Below are positions 14,710-34,450 of a stretch of 35,904 nt of DNA, in pieces. A model generated the notes under the pieces. That model was not told the DNA's origin, searched no databases, and worked only from the letters and a program-made list of their open reading frames with translations. The translations under genes were made by a program, and so were the position numbers. Position 1 is the first letter of the stretch; each line of letters starts with the position of its first letter. Location of the stretch: the UHGV virus genome UHGV-0042151. One strand, given 5' to 3'. The stretch is from a virus.

Positions 14710-14786
14710 TGGCGTGGCATGCAGGATTCGAACCTGCGACCAACCGCTTAGAAGGCGGTTGCTCTGTCCAACTGAGCTAATGCCAC
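14710..14786 (-). tRNA. tRNA-Arg (anticodon UCU)
   Basis: Hand-folded cloverleaf: acceptor GTGGCAT/ATGCCAC, D-arm GCTC-AGTTGGACA-GAGC, anticodon arm ACCGC-CTTCTAA-GCGGT, T-arm GCAGG-TTCGAAT-CCTGC, 3' GCCA; similar to but distinct from E. coli argU as recalled. Confidence 0.9.
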
Positions 14787-28717: not shown

Positions 28718-31192
28718 ATGAGACAGGAATGTATACAAGCGGTCCAGCAGGCGGCGCAGCGCACGTTAACGGCGCGAGAAATACAGAACATTGAAGACCG
28801 CATTTATCGAAATATGCGCTCCATTGCTCGTGATGACCCGATGTCGTGGCGACAACTTTCCGAATCAGAACGGTTGTATCGTGCAGCACAATTGGCATCT
28901 GAAGAATTACAGCGAGAAGCGGCATTAAAGAAACGTCGTGTGGCCCTCACTATAGCCGCACGTCAGAGATTGGATAAATTTATCAATAGCTATCAAGGGG
29001 CTGATGGGAAACTTGGCGCTCTTAACCGTACTATTGCTTTTAATGCAGACGGTAAATCGAATTTCCTCTCTGTTGAATCCAGAACAAAAGCCACCCGTGA
29101 TTATGCATTGAGTCAATTGCAGGAGGCATTCGAAGCAGTTGATCCTCGCTTTTTTGGTCTGTTTGAAGATGAAGCGGGCGTACGTGACCTGGTATATGAA
29201 ATGCGGGGGCAAAATACTGGCAATGCTAAAGCAAGAAAAGGTGCTAAGGCGTGGAGAGAAGTTACAGAGCTGCTGCGCCGCCGGTTTAATGATGCTGGTG
29301 GGGACATTGGCTATCTCGAAAACTGGGGGATCCCTCAACATCATTCTATGGAAAAGGTTGGGGCGGTATCAAAGGATAAGTGGGTTAGCGATGTTATAGG
29401 TAAGCTGGATCGCAAATATTATACCCGAGCCGATGGACAACTGATGAACGATGCCGAGTTGTCTGAATTTCTTGGAGAGGCTTATAACACGATCGCTACT
29501 GGTGGGCTGAATAAGCTTACTGATACCGGAATGCGAATTTCCGGCGCACGTGCTAACCGTGGTAATGCATCACGACAGATACATTTCAAAGATGCAGATT
29601 CCTATCTGCAATATCAGCAACTTTATGGCGATCGCTCTCTATGGGAAATCATGGTCGGTCACCTGGAAGGTATCAGTAAAGATATTGCGCTGGTGGAAAC
29701 ATATGGCCCAAACCCCGATCATGTTTTCCGCTCCCTTCTTGATCAGGTTAAGGCAGAAACGGCAACAGCTAACCCGAGTAAAACCGGTAGCGTCGAGCGT
29801 CTGGCGAACAAAACAGAGAACTTGTACAACTTTATTTCCGGAAAAACACAGCCTGTAGCGAATCCGCACATCGCGCGATGGTCTGACAATATCCGCAACT
29901 GGCTGGTTGCCAGCAGACTCGGATCCGCGTTGCTGTCATCGTTCTCTGATCTTGGAACCATGTATCTGTCTGCGAAGGTTACCAACCTTCCAATGAACCA
30001 GTTATTTCGCAACCAGCTTGAAGCTATGGACCCAACGAACCGTACAGAACTTGCGCGGGCGCGCCGCGCTGGCCTGGCGATGGAATCTCTACTTGGCAGC
30101 GTTAACCGCTGGGCGATGGATAATATGGGGCCGTCTGTGTCTCGTTGGGCGGCAACGGCGGTAATGCGTGCCAGTGGGCTTACAGCATGGTCAGATGCGC
30201 ACAAGCGCGCCTATGGCGTAACCATGATGGGAAGCCTGGGAGAAGTAGTGTCACGGACACCAGACCTTCGTAGCCTCGATGACTCTGATTTTCGTATCCT
30301 GAAAAGCAAAGGGATTACTGACACAGACTGGAGCGTATGGAAGCTGGCGCAACAGGAGGACTGGGGGAACGGTAATAATACGATGCTGACACCGGAAAGC
30401 ATTATGCGTATCCCTGATTCAGCAGTTAAACATCTTGGTGAGCCTGAACGCGTGAAATTTGAGGCAATGCGTAAACTGCTCGGTGCCGTAACTGAAGAAG
30501 TTGATATGGCTGTTATTACACCGGGCGCACGTGAACAGATGTTCGTAGGGTCTGGTCTTCAGCGTGGAACATGGAAAGGTGAATTAACGAGAAGTGTTTT
30601 CCTGTTTAAATCGTTCCCTATCTCGGTAGTTATGCGTCACTGGCATAGAGCTATGGGGATGCCGTCTGCTGGTGGGCGTGCGGCATATATAGCAACGTTT
30701 TTAGCAAGCACAACCATGCTTGGTGCTCTTTCCATGCAGATTACTGATCTTATTAATGGGAGAAATCCAAAAGAAATGACCGGTGACAACATGGTTAAAT
30801 TCTGGATAAATGCATTTTTAAAAGGTGGTGGGGCAGGGTTGTATGGTGATTTTCTTTTCTCTGACCACACCAGGTACGGGAGCGGCGCACTAGCGTCGAT
30901 GCTTGGCCCGGTAGCTGGTCTGGTTGATGACGTAGTGAAGATTGCTCAGGGCATACCGTTAAATGCTGTGGAAGGGAAGAATGAGCAGACTGGTGGTGAT
31001 CTGGTTAAGCTTGGGAAAGGTTTGATGCCTGGTGCGAATCTCTGGTACTTGAAGGCGGCTCTCGATCACATGATCTTTAATCAGATGCAGGAGTATTTTT
31101 CACCAGGCTATTTGCGTAAAATGGAGCAACGTTCGAAGAAAGAGTTTAACCAGACATACTGGTGGCGACCTCAGGATGTCACTCCGCAATAA
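28718..31192 (+). CDS. internal virion (ejection) protein D-like, 824 aa
   Basis: Last large gene before accessory island; synteny with T7 gp16 region. Confidence 0.5.
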   Translation: MRQECIQAVQQAAQRTLTAREIQNIEDRIYRNMRSIARDDPMSWRQLSESERLYRAAQLASEELQREAALKKRRVALTIAARQRLDKFINSYQGADGKLGALNRTIAFNADGKSNFLSVESRTKATRDYALSQLQEAFEAVDPRFFGLFEDEAGVRDLVYEMRGQNTGNAKARKGAKAWREVTELLRRRFNDAGGDIGYLENWGIPQHHSMEKVGAVSKDKWVSDVIGKLDRKYYTRADGQLMNDAELSEFLGEAYNTIATGGLNKLTDTGMRISGARANRGNASRQIHFKDADSYLQYQQLYGDRSLWEIMVGHLEGISKDIALVETYGPNPDHVFRSLLDQVKAETATANPSKTGSVERLANKTENLYNFISGKTQPVANPHIARWSDNIRNWLVASRLGSALLSSFSDLGTMYLSAKVTNLPMNQLFRNQLEAMDPTNRTELARARRAGLAMESLLGSVNRWAMDNMGPSVSRWAATAVMRASGLTAWSDAHKRAYGVTMMGSLGEVVSRTPDLRSLDDSDFRILKSKGITDTDWSVWKLAQQEDWGNGNNTMLTPESIMRIPDSAVKHLGEPERVKFEAMRKLLGAVTEEVDMAVITPGAREQMFVGSGLQRGTWKGELTRSVFLFKSFPISVVMRHWHRAMGMPSAGGRAAYIATFLASTTMLGALSMQITDLINGRNPKEMTGDNMVKFWINAFLKGGGAGLYGDFLFSDHTRYGSGALASMLGPVAGLVDDVVKIAQGIPLNAVEGKNEQTGGDLVKLGKGLMPGANLWYLKAALDHMIFNQMQEYFSPGYLRKMEQRSKKEFNQTYWWRPQDVTPQ

Positions 31193-31201
31193 GGAACAAC
31201 A

Positions 31202-31615
31202 ATGAAGGAATTATTGCTGTTATCGGTATTTTTGATATCCGCTTGCTCGACATCCTATGATGTTTATGACGGTGTTGATAAGGCATATTGCGACAAAGTT
31301 AAAATGGATTTTTCTCTTGCCAAGACGGCGAAGGATAGTTGTATTGATCACTACGTCAAGACTTATACCAAGCCAGCCTCATCGGCATCTGATATTGCTG
31401 AAGGTGCTGTGTTTGAGTGTAACAAGGTGATATCCATCGCAGCGAGTTCTTCATACGATGCTGCTGTATGTGCAATGGCTGAAAGAAACGGCATGTCAGT
31501 GCAAAAAATTAATAGCATGATAAGCAGTAATGACGAAGCCAAAATAAGAACTGATATCAGCTCGGTGAAAAAAGATGCCATGAACAGAGTTGTAAAATAT
31601 CAGTCATCTTTATAA
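31202..31615 (+). CDS. lipoprotein (137 aa), candidate superinfection-exclusion or moron product
   Basis: Signal peptide plus lipobox 'LISAC' then Cys; own terminator. Confidence 0.55.
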   Translation: MKELLLLSVFLISACSTSYDVYDGVDKAYCDKVKMDFSLAKTAKDSCIDHYVKTYTKPASSASDIAEGAVFECNKVISIAASSSYDAAVCAMAERNGMSVQKINSMISSNDEAKIRTDISSVKKDAMNRVVKYQSSL

Positions 31616-31618
31616 GTC

Positions 31619-31630
31619 GTGACATGTCAC
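31619..31630. promoter_or_regulatory. 12-bp perfect palindrome GTGACATGTCAC (copy 3 of 3)
   Basis: Immediately 5' of terminator hairpin. Confidence 0.35.
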
Positions 31631-31631
31631 A

Positions 31632-31655
31632 GGCCGCTTTCGCGGCCTTGTTTTT
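31632..31655 (+). terminator. rho-independent terminator
   Basis: GGCCGC-tttc-GCGGCC followed by TTGTTTTT. Confidence 0.6.
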
Positions 31656-31815
31656 AACGAATGCCACCGCCACCCGGGCGGGAATCCGCAGAACGCCCAC
31701 CGCAGCGGGAGCCGTCAGCAGCAGTGTCGCTGTCGTGCTGACAACGACCGGCAAAGGCCTGAGTTGAAGCTACCAGAGACAACAAAACGAACAGTGCAGC
31801 AAATGCTTTTTTCAT
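31654..31815 (-). CDS. small secreted peptide (53 aa precursor)
   Basis: 'MKKAFAALFVLLSLVASTQAFA' signal peptide then 31-aa Gly/Arg-rich tail with 2 Cys; upstream TTGACG-17-ATAGAT promoter-like. Confidence 0.4.
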   Translation of the reverse strand: MKKAFAALFVLLSLVASTQAFAGRCQHDSDTAADGSRCGGRSADSRPGGGGIR

Positions 31816-31886
31816 TGTGAAATTTCCATCTATAAGCCACCTCAATGTGGCGTCAATGAGTGTAGCACTGACTTTTGTTTCGCCCA

Positions 31887-31909
31887 CAAAAAAGCCCGCA
31901 GCGCGGGCT
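31887..31909 (-). terminator. rho-independent terminator (minus strand)
   Basis: AGCCCGC-gcu-GCGGGCU then U6 on minus strand, starting at the stop codon of the 31908 gene. Confidence 0.5.
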
Positions 31910-32348
31910 ATTCTTCTTCATCATTAAAAAGCGGATTGTTGTTTCCATCTGATGAAAGGAAAGGTATGTGTTCTCTTGAAAATCCAACAATGACAATTTC
32001 ATTATCATTTTTTGCATAATGAATGCATTCATTAGAATGCCTTCCGCCAGGGTTGAAATTTAAGTTAATGGTATAATTCTTAAATGTGTTTGGATACCAT
32101 GTTGGCCCACAATGATAATGCCAATAATTCTCTTGCTCATAATTGTCTGAGCCGGGAATTTTATCATGGTTATCATCAACCCACGAGGGCTTGTTTTTTC
32201 CAACAAGCGCCCTTCCATTGGCAACATCCTCTAAAAAACTTTGTATGATTTTTATTTCATCATCAGTAAGGAAAGGTCCGTCTACAGCGAAAGGGGTGTT
32301 GCTTTCCCCATGTAGAAAACTATTAGATATTCTAATGTTAAACTTCAA
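31908..32348 (-). CDS. hypothetical AT-rich protein (146 aa), second gene of two-gene operon
   Basis: TTG start 32348 with AGGAG SD 6 nt upstream (the track's ATG 32489 start has no SD and overlaps the small ORF); no recognisable domain. Confidence 0.4.
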   Translation of the reverse strand: MKFNIRISNSFLHGESNTPFAVDGPFLTDDEIKIIQSFLEDVANGRALVGKNKPSWVDDNHDKIPGSDNYEQENYWHYHCGPTWYPNTFKNYTINLNFNPGGRHSNECIHYAKNDNEIVIVGFSREHIPFLSSDGNNNPLFNDEEE

Positions 32349-32368
32349 GGAAAACTCCTGATGTGCTT

Positions 32369-32536
32369 CTATTTGGAGCGAAATGCCGCCTTGAAGTCGC
32401 TGAAAGATGTTCCTGTCTGGTAAACCATATCCTTGTCGCGCTCTTTGCTTGCGCGGCCAAGCATAACTTTTCCAATGACATCCCAGCATTGCTTGGCTTG
32501 TTCATTGTGCTGAGTACGATTTTTCAACGCTGTCAT
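32369..32536 (-). CDS. small hypothetical protein (55 aa), first gene of two-gene operon
   Basis: AGGAGG SD 6 nt before ATG 32536; 'MTALKNRTQHNEQAKQCWDVIGKVMLGRASKERDKDMVYQTGTSFSDFKAAFRSK'. Confidence 0.45.
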   Translation of the reverse strand: MTALKNRTQHNEQAKQCWDVIGKVMLGRASKERDKDMVYQTGTSFSDFKAAFRSK

Positions 32537-32635: not shown

Positions 32636-33322
32636 TCAGAAGAACCCAGCCTTGTCGTTGATGTACTCCGCGTGGGTCTGGATATCACGCAGGCATTTGC
32701 TCACACCAACAATGTAGCAGAACATGGTGGTCAGCTCCGCCGCCGCGCCCGATACGTCGTGCCCGTCTTCCTGTAACTGGTTCAGCAGATTCATCAGCAG
32801 TGAGTTCTCCGTCAGGCCGAGAACACCAGACGGAGAATGAATCAGGCTGCGGTAGCCGGGCTTCAGTGGGGCACTGTAGGTTTTGTTCTCTATCTTCATT
32901 GCCTGCATCACTGCTGATGCTGTGGCGTTGGCTACCTGGTCGGCAACTATCTTTATGCGTTCTTCCTGCGGGAGCGAGTTTTTAATGTAACTTCCGGTGC
33001 GGCGGATCTGAGGAAGAACCTCACCTGTAACCCATTTACGAAAGCGGTAGGGGATAGTGCCTGGTGTCACTGCGTCGCGGCAGCGGAGGATCAGTGTGTA
33101 GAGGCCTGACTCGTTGATAATATTGGTTTCACCTTGACGGCCTAAGTTAAATTTAGCCCTTTCATCATCATCAAGAGATTTTATTGACATAGTGGGGTTT
33201 GTCAGTTGAAGAGCTTTAATAACGTCTTTGGCAACAAACCAAGGATTTCCATCAATAACAATGGCTCGAATGGTGGCTTCTGATTCAAAATGAAAAACAG
33301 ATGGGGTTACGTTAGCAGTCAT
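32636..33322 (-). CDS. Bro-N domain antirepressor-like protein
   Basis: N-terminus 'IRAIVIDGNPWFVAKDVIKALQL...GLYTLILR' fits Bro-N; C-terminal domain homologous to the 34473..34730 product; AGGTGA SD then ATG 33322. Confidence 0.65.
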   Translation of the reverse strand: MTANVTPSVFHFESEATIRAIVIDGNPWFVAKDVIKALQLTNPTMSIKSLDDDERAKFNLGRQGETNIINESGLYTLILRCRDAVTPGTIPYRFRKWVTGEVLPQIRRTGSYIKNSLPQEERIKIVADQVANATASAVMQAMKIENKTYSAPLKPGYRSLIHSPSGVLGLTENSLLMNLLNQLQEDGHDVSGAAAELTTMFCYIVGVSKCLRDIQTHAEYINDKAGFF

Positions 33323-33481
33323 AGTGATCACCTTTTAGTATGGTTAATCACCACCTGAGGTGCAAATCTCGTTGGTGGTGAGACGTACAGGGTTTGCACT
33401 ACCGGCTAAAAGGACCCGGCGCACCTTTCGGTGCCCCTGCACGTCCCACCATAATTCTGGCATGACTGTGCTATACGCATA

Positions 33482-33503
33482 AAAAAACCACGTCTGGCGT
33501 GGT
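33482..33503 (-). terminator. intrinsic terminator inside Bro-N upstream region (possible sRNA or attenuator 3' end)
   Basis: Minus strand ACCACG-CCAGA-CGTGGT followed by U7. Confidence 0.4.
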
Positions 33504-33593
33504 ATGCGCCTTTTAGTAATCCGGGGTGCAAATCCCGGCACTGGATTTTGCCAGTGCCCGATTACTATGGCACAAGAGGAGTGCGATGTAAAT

Positions 33594-33721: not shown

Positions 33722-34450
33722 ATGGAAGTTTTCTGGATAGTTGTTGGTGTGGTTGCGGTGATTATTTACGTTATCAACCAGAACAAGACTAAGATCTCTG
33801 ATCGTACGGTCGTTAATCAGAACAAAACGATAAAGACCGAAGATGGGGAGATAACGATTAATCGTACACAGGTGATAGAGCACACATCTACTCAGTTTCA
33901 AAAAACTGGAGGTAACGCGCCTGATATTTCCGTACCTCCTGCTTATGATAGTGCGGTAATCCAGACATATTATAAACAGCAGGAGTTAGCAAAAGAGAGG
34001 CAACTGATTCAGCCAAAGCCGTTTACAGCTGAGCTTCCACCTGGAGTGTCAACGCGTCCGGCATATCATGGAAGATTCCCTGGTGATGACATATCGTCTC
34101 AGTCATTTAAAAAAGCACCTCAGGCAGTATCAGAGCCAGCAAGAATATCTTCTGTATCGCCGCCAAAAGAAGAATCAGCTAACAGAGTTTCAAGCGGTAG
34201 CAAGCAGTGCTTGCGATGCAGAATAAACCTTCCATATGAAAAATTCAGGAAATCGTCAAAAAATCCGGATGGATTGACTAAGTGGTGTGCAAGGTGTCTC
34301 GATGGCCCAAAGAATACACGTCATATGAAGTGGTGCCCAATTTGTAATGTCCGCAGAAAACGAACCAGCTTTTACCCTAATAATCAAAATGCGGACGGCT
34401 TAATGGCATGGTGCAAAACGTGCTGGGACGAGCACAAAGCGAAACGATAG
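33722..34450 (+). CDS. membrane-anchored protein with duplicated C-terminal zinc-ribbon (CxxC...WCxxC) modules
   Basis: N-terminal TM helix 'FWIVVGVVAVIIYVI'; 'CLRCRIN...WCARCLD' and 'WCPICNV...WCKTCWD'. Confidence 0.5.
   Translation: MEVFWIVVGVVAVIIYVINQNKTKISDRTVVNQNKTIKTEDGEITINRTQVIEHTSTQFQKTGGNAPDISVPPAYDSAVIQTYYKQQELAKERQLIQPKPFTAELPPGVSTRPAYHGRFPGDDISSQSFKKAPQAVSEPARISSVSPPKEESANRVSSGSKQCLRCRINLPYEKFRKSSKNPDGLTKWCARCLDGPKNTRHMKWCPICNVRRKRTSFYPNNQNADGLMAWCKTCWDEHKAKR

Follow-up and report, generated by a model that had tools for sequence, protein, structure and literature searches.

Two unrelated accessory cassettes for exported envelope proteins, with proposed functions, abut at the end of the ejection-protein operon of an epsilon15/phiV10-like Escherichia coli prophage

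What is encoded at the point where the virion genes of a temperate phage end and its accessory genes begin, and do two small genes that face each other at that point belong together? We addressed this question for positions 31202 to 31815 of the virus genome UHGV-0042151, a stretch of 35,904 nucleotides that we refer to as the window. There, a plus-strand gene for a 137-aa lipoprotein precursor converges on a minus-strand gene for a 53-aa exported peptide. A preliminary description of the locus, made from the DNA letters and a list of open reading frames (ORFs), had presented the two genes as a convergent pair at the entry of an accessory island. The analysis reported here leads to a different reading, to which we give roughly even odds (about 0.5) with its functional proposals included: two unrelated accessory cassettes for exported envelope proteins abut at the end of the ejection-protein operon, the lipoprotein being proposed to interfere with phage infection at the envelope and the peptide to act on its own upon a conserved envelope component.

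Results

Two independent cassettes meet at the end of the virion operon

The region of the two genes matches the Uetakevirus phages phiV10, phiv142-3, HEMP4, PAS61 and SPN1S at 89-99% identity and, judged from its sequence, the window is an epsilon15/phiV10-like (Uetakevirus) E. coli prophage. The 824-aa gene that precedes the lipoprotein gene (Table 1) is the last of three large virion core/ejection-protein genes in the matching Uetakevirus records. The ejection proteins of the phage comprise 862, 600, and 824 aa. The sequence of the window at 31150-31900 recurs with 100% identity in one E. coli genome, where the Prokaryotic Genome Annotation Pipeline (PGAP) assigns portal, capsid, "virion core protein, T7 gp14 family," and three large hypothetical products to the upstream genes and "hypothetical protein" to both the lipoprotein and the peptide gene. 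The minus strand downstream of the two genes carries a 193-aa ORF and a Bro-N antirepressor-like gene, along with sequences that match the C4 antisense RNA and isrK. The pair is located where the structural (virion) operon ends and the accessory/antirepressor (immunity-type) region starts, which bears out its placement at the entry of an accessory island.

The lipoprotein was found in 22 of 5426 complete E. coli genomes, the peptide unit was present in 498 of them (at up to three copies per genome), and 15 had both. UMNK88 is a strain with both genes, whereas enterotoxigenic E. coli (ETEC) H10407, in which the match covers 44% of the query, probably has the peptide unit only. All nine lipoprotein loci from Citrobacter/Enterobacter-type prophages and Cedecea were without the peptide, and three phages (phiv142-3, TL-2011b, and EC.W1-9) have the peptide and lack the lipoprotein. 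The two genes are not linked; they are independent cassettes, and they converge only because two cassettes happened to land on opposite sides of a single terminator, so that their framing as a convergent pair is misleading. The adjacency of the genes, their convergent arrangement, the terminator hairpin that they have in common, and the envelope-bound nature of both products could also be taken to indicate a functional pair, such as a receptor-blocking complex or a toxin/immunity pair. These distributions, along with the extension of the peptide family into phyla without the lipoprotein, already largely refute such a partnership, and we regard it as very improbable.

The first cassette encodes the precursor of a predicted outer-membrane lipoprotein

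The lipoprotein precursor begins with MKELLLLSVFLISAC followed by Ser, and its N-terminal residues, MKELLLLSVFL-ISAC, fit the signal peptidase II lipobox pattern [LVI][ASTVI][GAS]C with Cys15 as the residue predicted to be lipid modified. We thus recovered the 137-aa ORF, the I-S-A-C lipobox, and the terminator (a hairpin followed by a T run) that the preliminary description had assigned to this gene. The lipoboxes of homologues read LSGC, IVGC, ISAC, or LFGC; Cys15 is invariant and lipobox-like residues are retained down to 26% identity. Residue +2, which is Ser in the window, is either Ser or Thr in all lipoprotein homologues. According to the Lol rule, lipoproteins without Asp at +2 are sorted to the outer membrane in Enterobacteriaceae, which predicts an outer-membrane location for this protein.

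The mature domain comprises ∼122 aa and includes Cys30, Cys47, Cys73, and Cys90, all of them invariant to 26% identity. An AlphaFold2 model (predicted local distance difference test score, pLDDT, of 85) is all-helical with six helices. To judge from the equal 17-residue spacings of the cysteines, two disulfides, Cys30-Cys90 and Cys47-Cys73, probably hold two antiparallel helices together. Comparison of the gene with its Citrobacter copy gave a proportion of synonymous differences (pS) of 0.37 and of nonsynonymous differences (pN) of 0.025, for a pN/pS of ∼0.07. The lipoprotein gene is under strong purifying selection and is a genuine coding gene.

The gene starts 9 nt past the 824-aa ejection-protein gene, and its ribosome-binding site (RBS) overlaps the stop codon of that gene (Table 1). 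Its guanine-plus-cytosine (GC) content is 39.4%, as compared to 50.5% for the late operon. We detected no promoter-like site ahead of the lipoprotein gene, which accordingly has the appearance of the final cistron of the late operon, co-transcribed with the virion-protein genes. The T run of the terminator that follows overlaps the stop codon of the convergent peptide gene. A lambdoid moron, by the Hendrix/Juhala definition, is an extra gene with its own promoter and terminator between conserved genes; when viewed against this definition, the lipoprotein cassette exhibits presence/absence and deviant GC content, but no promoter of its own was detected.

A word-indexed search of 5.8 billion proteins returned 17 matches to the lipoprotein, all of them enteric (E. 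coli, Enterobacter, Citrobacter, and Cedecea), and an exhaustive profile search of 1.84 billion representatives returned 7 family matches, adding four distant members and one fragment. No match was obtained by tblastn against 50,697 GenBank phage records; the family is recorded from prophages and metagenomes, not from GenBank phage records. The only PHROG matches of the lipoprotein were phrog_8691 and phrog_3392, both of unknown function. There was no significant match in Pfam, NCBIfam, or PADLOC, with a weak match to Pfam Linker_histone (E 0.0011) lying below the curated cut-off, and no specific fold match in BFVD or the PDB. In Citrobacter/Enterobacter-type prophages (95% identity) and a Cedecea prophage (55%), members of the family immediately follow the last ejection-protein gene, and in a metagenomic epsilon15-like phage with a ∼26%-identical lipoprotein one extra 191-aa gene intervenes after the ejection-protein genes. 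The family is thus found in temperate phages of several enteric genera, and it does not track tailspike type.

A more distant homologue was found in Providencia/Morganellaceae, with 28% identity, a pairwise E of 3e-13, and retention of the lipobox and four cysteines. It is located in integrative islands of the AlpA/DUF3987/YfjJ type in Providencia chromosomes. Its neighbors differ across three loci, being a type I restriction-modification (RM) system with PDC-S11 at one, a type III RM system at another, and UvrD/GajB-like and DruE-like genes at the third. Only these neighbors match PADLOC defense models at the Providencia loci; neither the homologue itself nor the lipoprotein or peptide of the window has a match among the PADLOC-DB defense models.

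The lipoprotein occupies a slot in which envelope proteins are exchanged

To define the slot that the lipoprotein occupies, we surveyed the stretch from the ejection-protein stop codon to the terminator in 37 IMG/VR Uetakevirus contigs with an identical peptide gene. The lipoprotein of the window was the occupant in 11 of the 37. A 98-aa protein with multiple transmembrane (TM) segments (phrog_3075) was present in 18, a different lipoprotein of 126 aa (phrog_3716) along with small hydrophobic ORFs in five, and a phiV10p21-like two-TM protein, shortened to ∼33 aa in the example that was read, in the other three. The intact form of this two-TM protein, with 46 aa (phrog_7892), is present in phiV10, SPN1S, and PAS61. 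All of the occupants are membrane or envelope proteins, each of unknown function, and the flanks of the slot stay 96-99% identical while the cassette is swapped. This slot is a hypervariable swap site for envelope proteins in Uetakeviruses. A perfect palindrome at the right-hand junction of the slot (Table 1) also directly follows a different cassette in phage phiv142-3, and it might represent a junction for recombination, another hairpin, or a binding site.

The second cassette encodes a small peptide with a predicted cleavable signal

The peptide precursor consists of MKKAFAALFVLLSLVASTQAFA followed by GRCQHDSDTAADGSRCGGRSADSRPGGGGIR, with the predicted cut after A-F-A (residues 20-22) leaving a mature part of 31 residues that includes 8 Gly, 5 Arg, and 2 Cys. 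These counts and the ORF agree with the 53-aa precursor and Gly/Arg-rich, two-Cys mature part noted in the preliminary description. The N-terminal region, MKK, then AFAALFVLLSLVA, then STQAFA with G after the cut, exhibits the pattern of a signal peptidase I precursor. Across the family, the predicted cleavage site has Ala at -1 in 54/58 sequences, a small residue (A/S/V/T) at -3 in 58/58, and Gly at +1 in 52/58; this conserved AxA-G site indicates a cleaved signal peptide rather than an anchor. In the AlphaFold2 model (pLDDT 75) a helix at residues 2-22 is followed by a short loop with a beta-bridge.

The NCBI name of the family, "transmembrane anchored protein," is widely used and implies that the peptide remains uncleaved, with its N-terminal helix as a permanent membrane anchor. 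The hydrophobic helix at residues 2-22 is compatible with that view, as are a few homologues that possess a lipobox in place of the signal peptide, and so would be membrane tethered. Agreement with the -3/-1 rule is nearly perfect, however, and the hydrophobic part diverges freely next to a 25-aa core that is nearly invariant, as expected for a cleaved signal peptide. We therefore consider permanent anchoring improbable; the peptide is a full-length member of the phrog_14503/NCBI "transmembrane anchored protein" family, and its sequence pattern is that of a cleaved signal peptide, not an anchor.

The coding status of so small an ORF was assessed by a codon test on the 25-codon core in 35 copies from different genera. 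In the annotated frame, pS was 0.79 and pN was 0.23 (pN/pS 0.29), whereas four of the other frames yielded pN/pS values of 1.6-2.3 and the fifth, an antisense frame, a value of 0.39. Variation was greatest at third codon positions, and Ser codons switched between TCN and AGY. The peptide ORF is a genuine coding gene under purifying selection. Its shortness, its GC content of 57%, and the hairpins beside it might have suggested that the ORF is not a gene and that its conservation is due to an RNA element or a terminator region. Such an explanation is already refuted by the codon analysis, with synonymous sites near saturation while the amino acids are kept, Ser codons exchanged between their two families, and the lowest ratio of all six frames in the annotated one; in addition, there is no Rfam match at the peptide locus, and we assign this explanation virtually no probability.

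The peptide gene lies in a terminator-bounded unit with a conserved leader

The peptide gene is part of a unit of ∼315 bp that comprises, in order, a terminator, a promoter region, a 5' hairpin, the ORF, and a 3' hairpin. Phage TL-2011b, which otherwise differs and has an unrelated upstream gene, contains the block at 31617-31931 with 95.6% identity. The unit is absent from phiV10, SPN1S, and PAS61, and it is present in phiv142-3 and in the unrelated phages TL-2011b and EC.W1-9. With terminators on both sides, a -10-like box, and presence/absence among related phages, the unit is by its layout a moron. It resembles the lambdoid morons in being bounded by terminators, in possessing a promoter-like element, in being present or absent between similar phages, and in being common to unrelated phages; it differs from them in that the peptide family is not phage-specific and extends to Alphaproteobacteria, cyanobacteria, and others in non-phage contexts. 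The minus-strand terminator at the head of the unit separates the peptide gene from the 193-aa ORF upstream.

The preliminary description credited the peptide gene with its own promoter. A promoter-like element does exist, but the TTGACG-N16-TATAGA sequence is only at consensus level and is not conserved in relatives; it scores 9/12, is confined to the E. coli variant, and as a promoter would allow for hardly any leader. In 85 distinct copies, the region ahead of the gene shows a TAnnnT box (TACAAT or TACACT), a hairpin 6-7 nt later, a CUACACA-like stretch, and an RBS. This conserved box, which in the window carries an extended TG and has a weak -35 sequence (TGGGCG) 16 nt upstream, is the better promoter candidate.

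The leader hairpin was evaluated for covariation in an unfitted MAFFT alignment of 39 distinct upstream regions, using 500 shuffles and slid controls. Its four inner pairs all change on both sides (e.g., CG to UA and AU to GC), with 88.5% of cells paired, and its covariation score exceeds those of 500/500 shuffles and all slid controls; the aligned sequences are related, so the independent events are fewer than the cell counts suggest. Searching Rfam over 31100-32000 with E values of up to 5 gave no relevant match for the hairpin. Hairpins located right at the 5' end of an mRNA are known to stabilize transcripts, and the leader hairpin may be an mRNA-stabilizing or regulatory leader.

The peptide belongs to a large family of double-membraned bacteria

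The peptide had been described as having no obvious analogue, which is wrong with regard to relatives, as it belongs to the large family phrog_14503 (function unknown). This family ("membrane associated protein," moron category) matches the peptide over its full length. Copies with 100% identity occur in phages TL-2011b, phiv142-3, HEMP4, and EC.W1-9, and copies with 82-86% identity are present in Klebsiella phages. When one genome per species was scanned, relatives were found in 57 species. Their taxa include Enterobacterales, many Rhizobiales and other Alphaproteobacteria, Nostocales and other cyanobacteria, Rhodoferax, Vibrio, Bacteriovorax, and Polyangiaceae. A family profile search collected at least 935 clusters, none with a Pfam domain, and a profile search identified no relative of the family among PDB sequences. 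Scans of the peptide against Pfam, NCBIfam, and PADLOC yielded nothing significant, and literature searches recovered no relevant paper on the peptide family name or motifs, nor on Uetakevirus lipoproteins.

Conservation in the family is concentrated in a core of ∼25 residues, C-x4-D-[RT]-A-[AS]-D-G-S-R-C-G-x-R-x4-R-P-G-G, that is nearly invariant and nearly always located at the protein end. The N-terminal 22 residues diverge freely apart from the small residues at -3 and -1, and in a few homologues the core stands at the C terminus of a larger protein. As all host taxa of the family are double-membraned, the distribution points to the periplasm as the site of peptide action.

One candidate identity for this core was a calcium- or metal-binding loop akin to the Excalibur/EF-hand motif D-x-D-x-D-G-x-x-C. 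The copy in the window reads D-S-D-T-A-A-D-G-S-R-C and is flanked by a second Cys, and the spacing of the Excalibur D...DGxxC motif is one that we take to be the same as in the family-wide D-[RT]-A-[AS]-D-G-S-R-C. However, Pfam matched none of ten diverse mature peptides when E values of up to 10 were allowed; only two Asp residues are conserved family-wide, and the would-be loop has an invariant Ala at position 3 and an invariant Arg at position 12. Compared to DxDxDGxxCE, the family has an invariant Ala at the place of the third Asp and Gly at the place of the Glu. We rejected this identity on the absence of a Pfam match and the difference in motif residues, and we view a metal-binding loop of this kind as quite improbable.

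The surroundings of the peptide gene vary. Enteric copies are present in several prophage types, in which they adjoin ejection-protein genes, Rz spanins, tail-fiber genes, or antirepressor genes. The non-enteric neighbors are mixed, with some resolvases, integrases, and restriction genes and mostly unrelated genes in ordinary chromosomal regions. Neither Pfam counts over 150 neighbors nor an all-against-all BLAST comparison of every ORF at 57 loci revealed a conserved neighbor or partner gene of the peptide.

Other genes of the accessory region

The C4 antisense RNA and isrK matches both lie above the Rfam gathering score and just upstream of the Bro-N antirepressor-like gene (Table 1). This arrangement suggests that the antirepressor operon of this Uetakevirus is under antisense control like that of P1/P7 immI. 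The 193-aa ORF matches phrog_5954, has no Pfam match, and has a GC content of 38.7%; in a relative, PGAP splits the same region into a 146-aa version and a 55-aa ORF. It looks like another cargo gene. We considered for it the identity of the YafO-like toxin found at the equivalent position of TL-2011b and rejected this assignment, as the proteins are unrelated (BLASTP E 1.4). A 242-aa protein, phrog_6762, has a C-terminal part with weak matches to the endonuclease VII, HNH endonuclease, and Lar-like restriction-alleviation families, and it may be an anti-restriction or nuclease cargo gene of the accessory region. A tRNA-Arg gene lies inside the prophage between the terminase and portal genes.

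Table 1 Positions of the features in and around the two cassettes of the window
Feature	Position	Strand	Observation
tRNA-Arg gene	14710-14786	-	anticodon TCT
Last large virion core/ejection-protein gene, 824 aa	28718..31192	+	phrog_684 "virion structural protein," E=0; stop TAA at 31190-31192
RBS of lipoprotein gene	31191-31196	+	AAGGAA
Lipoprotein precursor gene, 137 aa	31202..31615	+	ORF; phrog_8691 E 1.6e-91, function unknown
Lipoprotein signal peptide codons	31202-31243	+	
Cys15 codon of lipoprotein	31244-31246	+	predicted lipid-modified residue
Perfect 12-bp palindrome	31619..31630		GTGACATGTCAC; exactly at right-hand junction of variable slot
Intrinsic terminator of late operon and lipoprotein gene	31631..31655	+	stem 31631-31648 AGGCCGCTTTCGCGGCCT, then TGTTTTT
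Small exported peptide gene, 53 aa	31654..31815	-	ORF; phrog_14503 E 2.3e-40
Mature part of peptide	31749-31657	-	Cys25 and Cys38
Signal peptide of peptide precursor	31815-31750	-	residues 1-22
TTGACG-N16-TATAGA	31856..31829	-	promoter-like element
Conserved leader hairpin	31836..31851	-	GCCAC-ATTGAG-GTGGC; predicted start of peptide mRNA, near 31852; folds -8.4 kcal/mol
Candidate -10 box with extended TG	31859..31867	-	TGcTACACT; consensus-level; T and A of TAnnnT invariant, last T nearly so
Weak -35 sequence	31886-31881	-	TGGGCG
Intrinsic terminator upstream of peptide gene	31893..31909	-	AGCCCGCGCTGCGGGCT then TTTTTG; predicted to end upstream antirepressor-operon transcript and isolate peptide gene
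193-aa ORF	31908-32489	-	
Bro-N antirepressor-like gene	32636-33331	-	
C4 antisense RNA match	33371-33456	-	77.8 bits
isrK match	33481-33557	-	67.4 bits
242-aa protein gene	33722-34450	+	phrog_6762

Discussion

Both genes are ordinary in kind: they are phage accessory envelope-protein genes of uncharacterized families. For the lipoprotein, we propose that Sec would export the precursor, that Cys15 would be lipid-modified and signal peptidase II would make the cut, and that the Ser at +2 would then let Lol deliver the protein to the outer membrane, at its inner face. Folded there into its helical domain, it would interfere at the envelope with infection by other phages or by the same phage, as exclusion at adsorption or at DNA entry. 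Such interference is the most likely function by analogy and the best supported one, because it draws together the export signals, the sorting rule, a slot that holds only envelope proteins, the adjacency to ejection-protein genes, and a relative in defense islands.

The preliminary description had likened the protein to exclusion lipoproteins of the Cor/Llp type. Cor of phi80, N15, and HK022 and Llp of T5 are outer-membrane lipoproteins that inactivate the FhuA receptor. The analogy is reasonable, given that the slot is always filled by envelope proteins and that a distant homologue stands beside variable defense systems; the lipoprotein is not, however, a member of that family, as no Pfam, PHROG, PADLOC, or fold link was found. 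In common with Cor and Llp, it is a small phage-encoded lipoprotein, predicted to reside in the outer membrane and encoded in or beside the virion gene region, with a plausible role at the envelope in countering incoming phage or protecting progeny. It differs from them in having no sequence or fold relationship, in its larger size (137 aa), in an all-helical model with two probable disulfides, and in its host phage, which is an O-antigen-specific podovirus rather than an FhuA-dependent siphovirus.

A second comparison is provided by Ltp of the Streptococcus phage TP-J34 and gp15 of HK97, two envelope proteins that are encoded by morons and prevent DNA from entering; Ltp is a lipoprotein of ∼140 aa with helical domains. 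The lipoprotein of the window is likewise an accessory envelope protein of a temperate phage, and its gene adjoins those of the ejection proteins, which would be an obvious target for a block of this kind. In contrast to Ltp and gp15, it has no Pfam family match, no specific PDB match, and no detected promoter of its own. We thus speak of analogy to Cor, Llp, Ltp, and HK97 gp15, not membership, because every homology test failed.

The apparent co-transcription of the gene with the virion operon, together with the lack of a detected promoter, means that the lipoprotein could act in lytic growth. Llp of T5 acts during lytic growth. The absence of expression in the lysogen, which the preliminary description would have held against an exclusion role, is too strict a criterion for this protein.

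The same late-operon coupling bears on two other functions that were considered for the lipoprotein. As an outer-membrane lipoprotein moron of deviant GC content, from a family that is present in temperate phages of several enteric genera independent of tailspike type, it might be a factor for lysogenic conversion or host fitness, for example one that confers serum or stress resistance as does lambda Bor. The tight coupling and the lack of a detected promoter argue against the steady expression in the lysogen that this role would call for, the distant homologue is found among defense systems rather than virulence genes, and the searches revealed no resemblance to Bor or to any named family; we consider a fitness role rather unlikely. 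Alternatively, the protein might serve the lytic cycle of its own phage, by protecting progeny from inactivation by debris or by modulating ejection or lysis. That proposal would account for a gene that comes last in the virion/ejection-protein operon, is apparently co-transcribed with it, and holds its position down to ∼26% identity, which suggests long co-evolution with this phage type. It is unlikely, since unrelated membrane proteins freely replace one another in the slot while the ejection proteins remain 96-99% identical, which makes the occupant dispensable for the core cycle, and since a homologue exists outside of phages in Providencia islands.

For the peptide, the proposed course is export by Sec, cutting after Ala22 by signal peptidase I, and oxidation to a 14-residue disulfide loop with a Gly/Arg-rich tail, which would yield a periplasmic mini-protein of ∼3 kDa. 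We consider it most likely that this peptide would act alone on a widely conserved envelope component, because no partner gene was found and the peptide is conserved across double-membraned phyla.

Several observations weigh against the combined proposal of envelope-level interference by the lipoprotein and solitary action by the peptide. Neither protein is linked to any function by homology. With no promoter detected upstream of the lipoprotein gene, expression in the lysogen, as needed for classical lysogen exclusion, is unsupported. The association with defense islands consists of three loci in one genus, and a slot for envelope proteins equally fits lysogenic conversion or the envelope transit of the phage itself. 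On the minus strand, the hairpin at 31631-31648 that forms the 3' end of the peptide mRNA is without a U run. Finally, the non-enteric contexts of the peptide are mostly ordinary or mixed chromosomal ones and provide no pointer to an anti-phage role.

Of the two families, that of the peptide stands out more, for its breadth, its nearly invariant core, and its lack of annotation. That it represents a new type of autonomous periplasmic effector is a speculative and, at present, doubtful extension of our proposal. We are similarly tentative about a broader scheme, itself unlikely, in which the disulfide-looped core of ∼25 residues binds a universal envelope component (e.g., a peptidoglycan enzyme or a transport machine) and has been captured by phages as a plug-in moron, with the lipoprotein founding a new family of entry-blocking exclusion proteins. 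If this scheme were true, the phage-captured peptide moron would alter envelope physiology or block rival phages, and the lipoprotein exclusion family would be common to epsilon15-like phages and defense islands.

The peptide is carried by prophages of about 1 in 11 (∼9%) complete E. coli genomes and is shared with rhizobia and cyanobacteria, and it is without a domain family, structure, or paper; identification of its target could bring to light a conserved weak point or a regulator of the Gram-negative envelope. Four unrelated membrane-protein or lipoprotein cassettes alternate in the slot after the ejection-protein genes of epsilon15/phiV10-like phages and, if the proposals made here hold, that slot would be a place to seek envelope-level exclusion factors.

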